Below, one piece after another: positions 15,722 through 21,484 of a stretch of DNA of 36,037 bases. Numbering within the stretch: the stretch's first letter is position 1; each line of letters starts with the position of its first letter. A program made the translations under genes and the position numbers. The notes below the pieces were generated by a model that saw only the letters and a list, made by a program, of their open reading frames with translations, was not told the DNA's origin and did no database searches. The DNA is taken from contig JAUVAX010000026.1 of assembly GCA_030591685.1 (NCBI GenBank), forward strand, positions 1-36,037, given 5' to 3'. This stretch comes from Pseudobdellovibrionaceae bacterium. Its GTDB lineage: Bacteria > Bdellovibrionota > Bdellovibrionia > Bdellovibrionales > UBA1609.

Positions 15722-15849
15722 GTCTAATTTCTAATTCAAATAAGTGGGCTTAAAAGGTAATATTTTAATACCTTGCCGGCTCATTGCCATGTAACCTCTA
15801 TAAATTATAATAAATCGAGTGTTTGAGTGCAAAAAGGAGCCTTTTAGGT

Positions 15850-16278
15850 ATGTCTTTATATTGGTTTAAAGCCTTTCATCTTATTGCAATGGTGGCCTGG
15901 TTTGCTGGGATGTTTTATATGTTTCGGTTATTTGTTTATCACACCGAAAACGTAGGCAAAAAAGATGTTGTTGAAGTCCTGATGGTGATGCAAAGGCGTC
16001 TTTATAAAGCCATCACTCTGCCCGCTATGTTAATCACATTGTTTTTTGGTTTTGGGATGCTTGTTTTACAACCTGAATATTTAGACTTTACATGGATGAC
16101 TCTTAAGCTGTTAGGGGTTGCTGGTTTAGTGACTTATACATTTTACTTAAACTATGTGCGAAAGCGTTTTTCTAGGGGGGATGTTTACTTGACCTCTAAG
16201 CAGTGTCGCTTTCGTAATGAAATACCAACTCCTCTGTTGGTAGTTATCGTAATACTGGCCTCAATCAGACCTTTTTGA
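15850..16278 (+). CDS. hemJ: Protoporphyrinogen oxidase HemJ family membrane protein
   Basis: WFKAFHLIAMVAWFAGMFYMFRLFVYH, RRLYKAI, NEIPT; ATG 15850 preferred over TTG 15823. Confidence 0.85.
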   Translation: MSLYWFKAFHLIAMVAWFAGMFYMFRLFVYHTENVGKKDVVEVLMVMQRRLYKAITLPAMLITLFFGFGMLVLQPEYLDFTWMTLKLLGVAGLVTYTFYLNYVRKRFSRGDVYLTSKQCRFRNEIPTPLLVVIVILASIRPF

Positions 16279-16394
16279 ATATAACAACTAGACTATGGTA
16301 CTAATGCGGCCTGTCCAAAAGTTTGGCGCGTTGCACTTAAGCCTTAAACATGGGTTAATTGTTTTAATTTAACATTGAGTACAAGGAGGTCGCA

Positions 16395-18011: not shown

Positions 18012-18878
18012 CTAAAGGGTATAAATATAAATCTTACCATGCTTCATTATTAAAGGCATAAACACAGCCTTTCGCTGAATAAAGCTAATACTTAAATTAG
18101 AGTGAGGTTCAATATAAACCTTTGATTTTAACTTTATTTCTCCGTGAGCAAATCGTTTAGTCGCTCTTCGGTGCACCATCCCTAACAGAGCTCTTGCTAA
18201 AATTTTAGGGGTTAAATTACCGGGTTCACTGCCTAAAGCGTTGTATAGGTGAGAGAGTGTCTCCGCCTCAAAGCTCATCACAAACTCTGACCGGTAACCT
18301 GTGGCCTCGACTTCAAAAAGTATGTTAATTGCTCCAATAAAATCAGAGTTCATAGGTTTAGCTTCAGGAGGACCCACTTGTACAAGAGAATTTGAAAGTT
18401 TTTTATAAATATTTTTTGTGGTATCAATAAACACCTCAAAGCAGGTGGCTGATAGATATTGATCAGTACTTTTAAGTTTTAATTCAGCGCCAATAAGTTC
18501 CATAAGGTTTGAAAAATCAATCGGATGGTGCGCAACATTGACATTACTTTTTAAAGTGGTCAAGGTGTCGTCGGCCTCTTGTTGTAGAAATACTATGGGG
18601 GTTTTATTATTATTACCCGTATGACTAAGATTGCTTAAAAAATTCAAAACACCCTTTTCTTTTAAACATTTTTGCTCAGCAATTATATAATCAAAGTTTT
18701 GATTATTAAGTTTTTTTATGGTGTCTAATGAAGTATATGAATCTACAATGTTAACACTACTAGAGAAATAACTGTGAGCATAATGTGAAAAAATACTTCC
18801 AAGGTCCTTACCCTCGGATAAAACGAGAATAGCCTTTCGATTTGATACAACCCTCTCCATTTTAAGAAACCTTCCCAC
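18012..18878 (-). CDS. Degenerate receiver (REC)-like domain plus CheX-like C-terminal domain
   Basis: REC-like pattern AILVLS...LNNQNFDYIIAE...TPIVFL...HPID; C-terminal FIDTTKNIY...FIGAINI...FVMSFE...MPLIMKHGKIYI resembles the CheC/CheX fold. Confidence 0.55.
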   Translation of the reverse strand: MGRFLKMERVVSNRKAILVLSEGKDLGSIFSHYAHSYFSSSVNIVDSYTSLDTIKKLNNQNFDYIIAEQKCLKEKGVLNFLSNLSHTGNNNKTPIVFLQQEADDTLTTLKSNVNVAHHPIDFSNLMELIGAELKLKSTDQYLSATCFEVFIDTTKNIYKKLSNSLVQVGPPEAKPMNSDFIGAINILFEVEATGYRSEFVMSFEAETLSHLYNALGSEPGNLTPKILARALLGMVHRRATKRFAHGEIKLKSKVYIEPHSNLSISFIQRKAVFMPLIMKHGKIYIYTL

Positions 18879-18966: not shown

Positions 18967-18994
18967 ATTTAACATAAAATTAATGTAAGGGCTT
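18967..18994 (-). other. Candidate dif (XerC/XerD) site
   Basis: Minus strand AAGCCCTTACA-TTAATT-TTATGTTAAAT: 11-6-11 layout with a perfect E. coli-type XerD arm; intergenic. Confidence 0.65.
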
Positions 18995-18995
18995 T

Positions 18996-19826
18996 TTAAA
19001 AAACATATAAGTAAAGATGTCCAAAGGCTGACTTTAGGGAAATACAAATGCCCTTTTTACCTTTAAGGTCATTTAAAACAGTATCGTTGGTGGGTACTAT
19101 TAATATTGACCCAAGACTCTCTTTAAAAAGGGTCTCGAAATGTGATTGAAGATTGCTGAAAATTATTTTAGTGGCAGCCTTCCCAACAATTAATGTAGAA
19201 AACTGATTACGCTGCCCTATCGACTCTGAGAGTTTTTCAAGTAATGAGCTCTCGTACATAAAAATAAAATTCGTACTCTTTTCATGAGTCTTGTTACTAT
19301 ATATTATCCCTGATTTACCCTTTAGGCTTTCTCCCTCAGGTTTTAAAATAGGGTTTTGCAAATCGGTAGGCTCAAACAAAACCTTAGATAAAAAACTGTT
19401 AGCAGATCGTGCAATGTCCTCAGAAAATTTAGACACACGGTACTGTTCAATGCCCTCTAAACCCAGTTGCTTGGAAAGCAAATCTATAAGTTTAAAATAA
19501 TTTACAGGGCGAACTGCGTTATGTACATTTTTATTTTTGGCTAAGCGGGGAGCACAGCTAGCCCCTTCGTTACTAATAAAAATAAAACTAGAGTCTTTAC
19601 TTTTAGGTAAGGCTTGAAGTTCAAAAACAAGCTTTGAGGGGGAAAAACCCTCAGCATCTCCGTCGGCTATGACAACGTGAAATTTTTGAATTCCAGCTTT
19701 TTTAATGGCTGAGTCCTGGCCAGGGGCGTGTATAGTTCTTGCTAGAGAGCCAAAGGCCTTAGCGATAAAGTAATCAATCAACTCTCTTTCTTTAGAGTCA
19801 CTGACTGTAACTAAGATATTTTTCAT
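18996..19826 (-). CDS. Degenerate REC-like plus CheX-like protein, paralogue of 18012..18878
   Basis: MKNILVTVSD...QKFHVVIADGD...FIFIS...RPVN; C-terminal ICISLKSAFGHLYLYV; ATG 19826 preferred over TTG 19847. Confidence 0.55.
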   Translation of the reverse strand: MKNILVTVSDSKERELIDYFIAKAFGSLARTIHAPGQDSAIKKAGIQKFHVVIADGDAEGFSPSKLVFELQALPKSKDSSFIFISNEGASCAPRLAKNKNVHNAVRPVNYFKLIDLLSKQLGLEGIEQYRVSKFSEDIARSANSFLSKVLFEPTDLQNPILKPEGESLKGKSGIIYSNKTHEKSTNFIFMYESSLLEKLSESIGQRNQFSTLIVGKAATKIIFSNLQSHFETLFKESLGSILIVPTNDTVLNDLKGKKGICISLKSAFGHLYLYVF

Positions 19827-19995
19827 ATGTGTCTCTGTATAATACAAACTACATACCCTTCTGCAAACGTTCCATAAAAAACAAGTCTTTAGATTTTAAC
19901 CCAATAAGTATTCATAAGCAATAAATCTTAAAGTTCACCCCGAAATGAAACTTGTTTTATCAAAAAGAAACATTAAATAAGTCACTATTAGACAA

Positions 19996-20538
19996 TTAAA
20001 GAATCAATCGTCTTAGCTCTGTTTGTGAGTACAGATAGTCCGCATATATCATTGTGTTTGTAACGTTTCTGTGGCCTAGAGCTACTTGTAAAAGTCGTAG
20101 GTCTTTAGTTTTTTTATAAAGGCGAATGGCAAAAGTATGCCTTAAACTATGAAACTTTTTATGAACAGGCCTATAGAGGTGCCAAACCTGAACAAGTCGA
20201 GAGTAGGATATAGGGAACATTAACCCTGAACATTTTTGAGGATCCAAAGAGCCCTTGAGCTGCAAAACGTGTTTAAATAACCATGAGGGCAGGGGGATTT
20301 CGCGATCATCACTGCCCTTGATCCCTCTTATATAGAGGCTCTCGTCGTACTCGTTAACGTCTTCGAGCCTGATATTAAGTAGCTCTGTAGCGCGCCCACC
20401 GGTGAGGAGTGCTAAATAAATCAAAACACAGTTTCTTTGATCTTGGTCAATAAAGCTGTCTAGTATATAGCAAAGCCTATCGTGCTCAGGCTCAACAAGG
20501 TATTTAGTTTTGTTTAATTGATACCTTTGTTGCCTCAT
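19996..20538 (-). CDS. Tyrosine recombinase, catalytic domain only (180 aa)
   Basis: Complete R-K-H-R-H-Y set: TGGRATE, GIKG, FHSLRHTFA, LGHRN, TMIY; no N-terminal core-binding domain. Confidence 0.92.
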   Translation of the reverse strand: MRQQRYQLNKTKYLVEPEHDRLCYILDSFIDQDQRNCVLIYLALLTGGRATELLNIRLEDVNEYDESLYIRGIKGSDDREIPLPSWLFKHVLQLKGSLDPQKCSGLMFPISYSRLVQVWHLYRPVHKKFHSLRHTFAIRLYKKTKDLRLLQVALGHRNVTNTMIYADYLYSQTELRRLIL

Positions 20539-20648
20539 AGGATTTCACCAATTTTTATACGCCGCGTATACCAGCCGAGTGGTGTGAAATAAAAGATAAA
20601 ACCCTCACTTTGACAAAGTTCATTAGTATAAAACTTGGCTACCAATTT

Positions 20649-20675
20649 TAAATAATTAAATAGCTTAATTATTTA
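20649..20675. repeat. Perfect 11-bp inverted repeat with 5-bp spacer
   Basis: TAAATAATTAA-atagc-TTAATTATTTA; a third copy of the arm at 20887-20897. Confidence 0.7.
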
Positions 20676-20932
20676 GTGTACTTAGCACTACAACTTATAA
20701 CTATAAGCTATAGCCTATTTTGATTTTAGGCATATGTCACCATGCATTTAATTTAATTCAATAAATCTAAATACTTAACTTGCCGCGTCTGATTTGGCGG
20801 ATGCCTTAAATATACATATCACAACTATAAATATTGTGAAACACTGTATCAAGTTGTGTTACGCAGCATGCAAGCAAGGTCGGGGTTTAATTATTTATAT
20901 AAACCCTCATCACCGACAAGCAGGGGGACAAA

Positions 20933-21484
20933 ATAGAAACCATTAAACCTAGAAAAGCCCATCTCTCAAAATATCAAAGGGGCGCATTACTTGATGCTCT
21001 TGATAATGCGAACCTTAACCAAGCACAAAACACCCCCCCTATAGCGCCTGATAGAGCACCAAAAAGTGCTTTAGGGCTTAAGTACGAAGCTGAGGTTCAG
21101 ATTATTACTGCAAAGCTAGGGGACTTAGAGCAAATCCGTACTAAACTAGGTGTTTCACGGCGTAAAATCTCACAATTACTTATGGTGGACCCGTCGGCTT
21201 GGACTCGGTGGTCTAAGCAGGGCAGAGCCCCCGCACATATTTATAGATCCTTACAGTGGTATATGGCCCTTATAGATAAGGACTCTGCCTGGCACCCACA
21301 AAACACGTTTAACACTCTTTCACGCTCATCTATTAACAATGAACTTTTGGTCATGAAAAAAACCATCCAACAACTACAACAAAACCTTAAAGCGCAAAAA
21401 CACACCAAATGGCCCCAAGCTTTAAGTTACTTTTTGGTTCTCTGTTTAGGGCTTTTAGGGGGCTTAGTTATTCAACAGCTTTAG
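20933..21484 (+). CDS. XRE/Cro-like HTH protein with coiled coil and C-terminal transmembrane helix; probable non-canonical start
   Basis: Frame is open from 20903. Tracked ATG 21182 falls inside the HTH (DLEQIRTKLGVSRRKISQLLMVDPSAWTRW). AGGGGG SD lies 5 nt before an in-frame ATA at 20933. C-terminus ALSYFLVLCLGLLGGLVI is hydrophobic. Confidence 0.7.
   Translation: METIKPRKAHLSKYQRGALLDALDNANLNQAQNTPPIAPDRAPKSALGLKYEAEVQIITAKLGDLEQIRTKLGVSRRKISQLLMVDPSAWTRWSKQGRAPAHIYRSLQWYMALIDKDSAWHPQNTFNTLSRSSINNELLVMKKTIQQLQQNLKAQKHTKWPQALSYFLVLCLGLLGGLVIQQL

Follow-up and report, generated by a model that had tools for sequence, protein, structure and literature searches.

A catalytic-domain-only tyrosine recombinase, its predicted core site, and a divergent membrane-anchored partner form a conserved module near the replication terminus of Bdellovibrionales

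The window analyzed here is a 36,037-nucleotide stretch of DNA from a Pseudobdellovibrionaceae bacterium (contig JAUVAX010000026.1), in which two divergent genes are separated by a 394-bp spacer with conserved palindromes. Comparison with relatives indicates that a recombinase gene, a predicted core site in the spacer, and the gene for a helix-turn-helix (HTH) protein constitute a module found across Bdellovibrionales, near the replication terminus. The first gene (19996–20538, minus strand) encodes a 180-amino acid protein whose sole family match is PF00589 (E 3.6e-19) and in which the catalytic residues R49, K74, H130, R133, H156, and Y165 are all present; these six residues are without variation in 116 aligned homologs (of 120 listed). 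The AlphaFold model of this protein (predicted local distance difference test, pLDDT, 84) consists of a catalytic domain alone, with the core-binding domain absent, and the closest folds retrieved in a fold search were the catalytic domains of XerA and XerH. The protein has both the R-K-H-R-H/W-Y residue set and the fold of the tyrosine recombinase superfamily, as an initial annotation made from the DNA letters had proposed. Its scores fall far under the curated cut-offs for XerC (49.6 versus 335 bits), XerD (54.1 versus 330), XerS (50.5 versus 267), FimB (34.6 versus 221), FimE (31.6 versus 222), and XerA. Simple tyrosine recombinases, in the available part of Smyshlyaev et al. 2021, have a core-binding plus catalytic domain (CB+CAT) architecture; the first of these domains is missing from the module enzyme, and members of its family are mostly 170–200 amino acids long in searches that were not aimed at longer fused forms.

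The second gene (20933–21484, plus strand) encodes 183 amino acids when counted from a candidate ATA start codon at 20933, which has an AGGGGGA motif ahead of it. The earliest ATG of this open reading frame (ORF) is only at 21182, homologs have an ATG at the place matching the ATA, and automatic gene calling yields a shortened 100-amino acid product; the ATA, which lies outside the coverage of run X1, may be either a genuine rare start or an assembly error. The modeled protein contains an XRE-like HTH, a long helix (residues 131–155), and a hydrophobic C-terminal helix (residues 160–182); its fold matches are weak, none reaching E ≤ 0.001. This arrangement bears out the head-to-head partner with HTH, coiled coil, and transmembrane (TM) helix that the initial annotation had described across a palindromic spacer of ∼390 bp. 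A TM helix is present in 54 of 66 complete homologs, and in 8 others a Lys-rich tail takes its place. These eight (L012, L025, L051, L055, L059, L068, L069, and L077) belong to one clade, in which the tail is lysine-rich and histone H1–like. Profile-profile comparison of the recombinase and HTH families found no similarity between them, and a complex prediction for the recombinase with the HTH domain scored 0.00, which has no bearing either way.

Within the spacer, a 28-bp element at 20687–20714 has the form of a recombination core, with two 11-bp arms around a 6-bp asymmetric center (TAGTTA on the minus strand) and the consensus ACTnnnGCTTA, 6-bp center, TAAGCnnnAGT. This 11-6-11 layout has the two inverted arms around a 6–8-bp overlap, common to partner sites, that characterize substrates of the superfamily. 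The element is present in 76 of 81 recombinase loci (74 above 20 bits and 2 by eye), and the genome of the window contains only one copy, which scores 41.9 bits when the next best sequence scores 10.6. Twelve different 6-mers occupy the center in all, with TAGTTA in 57 of the 76 loci and the reversed center TAACTA in 8, mostly within one clade. The arm positions differ between species yet are complementary in 222 of 304 cells, compared with a shuffle mean of 120 (kin are not independent in this count), and the orientation of the core flank relative to the HTH gene is identical in every locus where both could be placed. Based on these features, together with the inversions at homologous cores described below, the 28-bp core is very probably the substrate of the 180-amino acid recombinase.

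Two other interpretations of the core were considered and rejected. An RNA hairpin is disfavored by the lack of any excess of G-T pairs and by the changes between sister taxa, which among 72 cells were one-sided in 24, compensatory in 4, of other kinds in 5, and absent in 39; because the arm changes are mostly one-sided, a dyad bound by protein fits better than an obligate hairpin. A hairpin telomere was rejected because the center of the core is not a perfect palindrome. A search of Rfam gave four weak matches, none of them near its gathering score. In the assembly of genome G028 there is a break exactly at the core, which opens both contig C8 and contig C56.

The core is accompanied by further conserved DNA toward each gene. 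A 16-bp flank at 20671–20686 (minus strand) is degenerate in the window and in relatives resembles a site for integration host factor (IHF), for which binding is predicted: a strict motif is found at +10 in 27 of the 76 loci. A second IHF-like motif, also degenerate here, is matched at 20764–20777 (minus strand), ∼80 bp from the core center, and its strict form occurs at −80 in 15 of the 76 loci; overall, 41 of the 76 have a strict motif, as judged with the IHF consensus. Ahead of the HTH start are three palindromic boxes of the form TTGTG-N3-CACAA (20810–20871), spaced 20–23 bp apart. Between two and four boxes are found in 74 of the 76 loci, with 114 of 126 spacings in the 20–23-bp range, and the genome of the window has no second array of this kind (triple score of 28.5 versus 15.7 for the next best). 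The boxes are likely to be operators for the HTH protein or accessory sites.

The two genes are inherited together. A scan of species genomes recovered 124 relatives of the recombinase, the best 80 of which have 58–70% identity and come from Bdellovibrionales or their kin, save for a few loosely labeled metagenome-assembled genomes. Within the phylum, the recombinase is present in 51 of 251 genomes, all of them in one class, including 17 of 17 genomes of g46, the largest genus sampled. The HTH gene was found in 98 of 121 genomes of the order, in 0 of 8 of genus g34, and in 73 of the 81 recombinase loci; in 7 of the 8 misses the locus is cut by a contig end, and locus L079 is a 2-kb contig with neither the HTH gene nor the core. 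Among 68 ORF-called pairs, 57 are directly divergent, 8 are divergent with genes between them, 1 is tandem, and 2 were not placed. Every genome that both searches list has either both genes or neither, with the exception of G198 (L304, C1 ∼162300–162600), in which a deletion removed the core together with the recombinase except for 22 codons and left the HTH gene and the boxes. In genome G298, the recombinase is represented by a fragment at the end of a contig, and the HTH gene was not found. A strict core pattern, which overlooks many true sites, matched 50 of 301 genomes of the order, with exactly one copy in 48 of the 50. Where genes have been inserted into the module, they sit beside the core and not between duplicated cores, and no transposase family was found among the recurring neighbors in the 81 loci.

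The position of the module relative to dif was compared across the order. The canonical dif sequence of HD100, as given in a table and a supplement row of PMC2731167, provided a pattern that was matched in 112 of 121 genomes. In all 56 cases with the module and dif on the same contig, which omit genomes with dif on another contig as well as the true exceptions G287 and G291, the distance between them is 3.8–112 kb (median of 14 kb), the module lies on either side of dif, and the linked core is distinct from dif itself; the HTH gene is oriented toward dif in 55 of the 56. A sign change in GC skew at the locus is clear in G003 and weaker in G043, G041, and G009, and the contig of the window (C61) spans a replication-strand switch at ∼17–30 kb, with a weak sign change in GC skew. 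The assembly that contains the window yielded no canonical dif, the best candidate having 4 mismatches of 22, even though markers put this genome at 100% completeness and its terminus contig is present; its dif is probably unassembled. Separate genes on contigs C47 and C93, one XerC-like and one XerD-like, encode proteins of 291 and 331 amino acids. These comparisons uphold the initial proposal of a domesticated, conserved two-gene system linked to the terminus, and the linkage of the two genes and their terminus position hold across relatives.

The target site that the initial annotation had named did not withstand the same comparison. One arm of this dif-like 28-mer (18967–18994, minus strand) matches the E. 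coli-type XerD arm perfectly, but the genome contains 8 perfect matches of this kind in total; the 28-mer is also on the wrong side of the module and differs from the order-wide dif at 8 of 22 positions. It is probably a chance match to an XerD arm outside the module, and we regard the idea that it is a divergent dif as improbable. Palindromes that come close to a perfect dif shape, with ATAA-N6-TTATG read in either direction, were also observed at L037 881–928, at L040 6988–7016, and at 48369–48397 of contig C35 from the genome of the window. Downstream of the recombinase are two tandem ORFs (18012–18878 and 18996–19847) that encode proteins of 283–288 amino acids with receiver-like N termini; these ORFs have no significant Pfam match and are not conserved neighbors in relatives.

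Multiple cores were present in just two of the 50 genomes that match the strict core pattern, G287 and G291, both of genus g179, where a control pattern gave 0 matches. G287 has 51 cores, 44 of which form 22 pairs spaced 344–346 bp apart, and the centers were inverted in all 10 pairs read. The inner segments of 20 pairs are in one direction, and those of the other 2 of the 22 (L366 and L367) are flipped; in these two, the outer flanks have changed places, with the core as the point of exchange. In 18 of the 22 units, the pair precedes a gene with a prepilin-like N terminus (identified by eye), and Pfam confirmed 3 of these plus 3 in G291. In G291, segments of 107 bp lie between inverted cores ahead of genes for pilins and proteins of ∼1000 amino acids, and the 9 switches sampled are all in the same orientation. 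The center 6-mer is common to the switches within a genome and different between G287 and G291. The best evidence for the core as a crossover site, with an overlap of 6 bp, comes from the flipped segments of G287. The recombinase of g179 is intact (51–55% identity) and lies far from the HTH gene, and the only other match in each g179 genome is a Xer-sized frame of 317–344 amino acids. Because the cores are homologous, the flipping would be the work of the short recombinase and not of XerC/XerD. The HTH gene of g179 has lost the core and boxes, and terminus linkage is also gone where the core is multi-copy.

The invertible switches of G287 (L354–L373, L318, and L322) and G291 (L348–L353), which stand before pilin-like and large secreted-protein genes at multiple loci, probably serve phase or antigenic variation. 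Three further loci of G287 (L340, L344, and L346) have solo cores followed by 58 bp of switch sequence, L340 and L344 being ahead of ankyrin-repeat genes; the presence of both solo cores and paired switches could allow promoter shuffling. Downstream of the HTH gene in G287 (L321, ∼15800–16300) are tandem repeats that each contain a tRNA-like 5′ half-sequence.

The apparent activity of the recombinase family in g179 raises the possibility that the window also contains a phase-variation switch, as the initial annotation had suggested, and the reversed centers in 8 of the 76 loci might be read in that way. At its own locus, though, the core is single, without an inverted partner, the core flank keeps one orientation to the HTH gene, and the reversed centers are concentrated in one clade, so a local switch is extremely unlikely; the suggestion survives for g179 alone. 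A different alternative is that the locus is purely regulatory, with the palindromes as operators, the HTH protein as a transcription factor, and a recombinase that no longer acts on the spacer. When genes are inserted, the core usually keeps its distance of 290–490 bp from the HTH motif and does not stay beside the recombinase, in keeping with this alternative, and a 10-of-12 promoter match overlaps the boxes, but the number of such matches is at chance level (3 versus 2.7 expected). Invariant catalytic residues, phages that have cores with a recombinase and without the HTH gene, and the use of cores as crossover points in G287 all run counter to it, and we consider a solely regulatory function very unlikely.

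Relatives of the recombinase are also found in phages. A profile search returned 244 clusters at E ≤ 1e-30, the best 150 of which are mostly 165–200 amino acids long, and in a quick tree the short recombinases form a poorly resolved radiation in which the chromosomal sequences are one weakly supported group. Among 17 distinct viral loci with a short recombinase (4 duplicates dropped), none has the HTH gene within the fetched flanks, and 2 contain a chromosomal-type site (21.8 and 17.7 bits, against a genome background of 10.6). With a looser structure score, a site was found in 6 of the 17 loci compared with 7 of 71 control loci (p ∼0.03), a modest enrichment at a threshold chosen after the fact; searching with a 12-bp center and 2 mismatches gave no enrichment in recombinase phages over a control pattern. 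Among 79 metagenome and 4 viral matches to the pattern, those outside the module are mostly due to chance. The same 16-bp flank stands beside phage and g179 cores. Distant matches only, at ≤35% identity among the best 20 of each, were obtained from collections of named phages and plasmids. Short relatives of the recombinase are phage-borne, and the module is best read as phage-derived. Catalytic-domain-only tyrosine recombinases of 165–200 amino acids form a widespread family in phages (L119–L122 and L135–L150); in several records they lie near terminase genes, and the collection of named phages gave nothing close to them.

The core itself was also found in two further records. One is a phage record of 37.9 kb (L217, 81% complete) with a core and flank of 47 bits beside a small terminase; no recombinase was found in this 81%-complete record. 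The other, from run X1, is a 1093-bp contig that terminates in an exact 35-bp copy of window positions 20679–20713 with unrelated sequence upstream; its depth is 11.7 when host pieces have 2.6–6.7, and the sequence adjoining the shared 35 bp was not found in the genome of the window or in the metagenome contigs. The initial annotation had seen no phage, transposon, tRNA, or att context at this locus. ARAGORN indeed finds 0 tRNA genes in the window; the att part of that claim fails, as the spacer holds a recombination core shared with one phage record and one unplaced contig. Both records, like the phage-borne character of the wider family, are what one would expect if the core were a phage attachment or trap site, at which a captured integrase makes core-bearing phages integrate or be cut near the terminus and the HTH protein gates this as a membrane-bound repressor. 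Against this, no prophage was seen between two cores, 48 of the 50 matching genomes are single-core, inserted genes adjoin the core without being bounded by duplicated cores, two more viral scans gave L217 only or nothing, and the X1 contig is a single record that could come from a relative. We therefore judge an attachment or trap function unlikely.

Based on the joint inheritance, single copy, terminus linkage, and site architecture, which together with the inversion at homologous cores are established by comparison of genomes, our preferred interpretation is that the locus is a domesticated, phage-derived module that resolves or unlinks sister chromosomes at the terminus apart from XerCD/dif, a proposal for which we see the case as evenly balanced. 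The 180-amino acid enzyme would bind both 11-bp arms and exchange strands over the 6-bp center, with IHF bending of the flanks substituting for the missing core-binding domain. Because there is one asymmetric core per chromosome, the sister copy (or an incoming element) is the sole possible partner, which suggests that recombination would resolve chromosome dimers or multimers or unlink sisters at the terminus. The HTH protein may bind the three boxes, since neither the HTH gene nor the boxes are linked to the cores of g179 and of phages, and it would control expression of the pair and/or bias synapsis toward resolution, with the TM helix keeping the complex at the membrane. The initial proposal that the HTH protein supplies the targeting of the recombinase to its core found no support, because phages and g179 keep recombinase and core in the absence of a linked HTH gene or boxes; the accompanying suggestions of a role in multiple fission and of a membrane tether may be kept as conjectures about the module.

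A tether is also the basis of another explanation, in which the HTH-TM protein, bound to the boxes, fixes ter at the membrane, and the recombinase, in a stable complex with cleaved DNA or a Holliday junction, holds or releases the sister termini and does not complete the exchange. Macrodomain tethers such as MatP/matS use many sites; the module has its boxes in a single array, and the terminus contig shows no enrichment of lone boxes. The flipped segments in G287 also imply complete exchange by this recombinase family. The TM helix or Lys-rich tail of the HTH homologs and the single copy and fixed polarity to dif are in favor of a tether, as is the location of ter at the nucleoid tip close to the flagellated pole in the available portions of PMC8445325 and PMC11318664. 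On balance, we think a tether of this kind quite unlikely.

Several points weigh against sister-chromosome resolution by the module. The evidence for recombination is comparative and comes from the homologous cores of g179, and a lone terminus site could form dimers as readily as it resolves them unless directionality is imposed. A second system would have to be explained, given that XerC, XerD, and a canonical dif exist already (PMC2731167). Many contigs are short, which favors short distances among the 56 pairs, and the related genomes in this set are not independent. Conserved housekeeping neighbors (the fab cluster and leucine dehydrogenase) are common to many loci, so proximity to ter may be partly inherited synteny, and symmetric inversions would likewise preserve the polarity of the HTH gene to dif. 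The modest enrichment of sites in phages belongs here too. The module was not found in genus g34 (recombinase in 0 of 9 genomes), in other classes of the phylum, or, in the case of the recombinase, in any of the 8 relatives of ≤1.8 Mb; given these gaps and the loss in G198, it is dispensable. Among those other classes are predators whose division likewise yields many cells, which speaks against an essential role in multiple fission.

The proposed resolution module was compared with known systems. Like XerS/difSL and XerH/difH, as they are described in the portion of PMC2731167 at hand, it links one recombinase gene to an intergenic palindrome, rich in AT, in the terminus region. Unlike those systems, it coexists with XerC/XerD and canonical dif and does not replace them, it adds the boxes and an HTH-TM partner, and its enzyme has 180 amino acids and no core-binding domain, whereas XerS has 356 amino acids. 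FimB and FimE, which act at fimS, are likewise short tyrosine recombinases with IHF-type flanks at their site, and the g179 system appears to behave similarly in inverting segments of 107–317 bp before pilus genes; the module differs from them in its dif-sized 28-bp core and, outside g179, in having one core and no invertible segment. In Xer recombination at cer/psi and in Cre/loxP of phage P1, accessory DNA or a phage setting offers a parallel: the core of the module, with ∼170 bp of accessory DNA on one side, could make recombination selective for resolution, and several phage copies of the short recombinase are near terminase genes. The proteins of the module differ from these, with no homology to PepA/ArgR, or to Cre beyond the catalytic fold. 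TnpS/TnpT of Tn4651 and TnXax1, in the accessible sections of PMC4337579, resemble the module in coming from two divergent genes, for a tyrosine recombinase and its helper, that enclose a core palindrome and the palindromes bound by the helper; the module, compared with them by description and not by sequence, is chromosomal and single-copy, has no transposase or terminal repeats seen at its loci, and has an XRE-like HTH protein with a TM helix as its helper. MpsA/MpsB of SGI1 also combine a catalytic-type protein with a separate DNA-binding protein, and the part of PMC6414798 seen describes MpsB as resembling a core-binding domain and the pair as a relaxase acting on oriT. The module partner, unlike MpsB, models as an XRE/Cro-like HTH (with weak fold matches) and is missing where phages and g179 keep the core.

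No description of the module was found in the mostly open-access literature, as represented by the available portions of sources including PMC2731167, PMC11318664, PMC8445325, PMC8138268, PMC6414798, PMC4337579, PMC3818213, and bioRxiv 10.1101/2025.09.24.678257, and two supplements of PMC11870529 contained no match to it. In the sections available, a review (PMC11318664) names only XerCD, dif, and FtsK, all of them in silico. The way in which a single Bdellovibrio filament separates its numerous sister chromosomes ahead of synchronous division is the open question that the module addresses. As a tentative extension toward which we remain skeptical, it may be a second, membrane-anchored terminus unlinking system, independent of septum and FtsK, in which a mini-recombinase of phage origin, the 28-bp core with its IHF flanks, and the HTH-TM protein as directionality factor serve the filament stage with its many chromosomes; in g179 the core, released from its accessory sites, would have become ∼20 pilin switches for antigenic variation, and some phages would mimic the core to exploit the enzyme.

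A 180-amino acid tyrosine recombinase with a known 28-bp core falls outside the CB+CAT classification, and the family provides a natural case in which one type of core is used singly at the terminus and as inverted pairs in pilin switches. If the latter interpretation is true, the g179 switches are phase variation in a predatory lineage. Close to where chromosome replication ends, most Bdellovibrio-like predators keep a small recombinase together with the site it targets and a partner anchored in the membrane, and the module, present throughout the sampled genomes of g46, supplies an enzyme, a site, and a partner defined well enough for deletion and assay.

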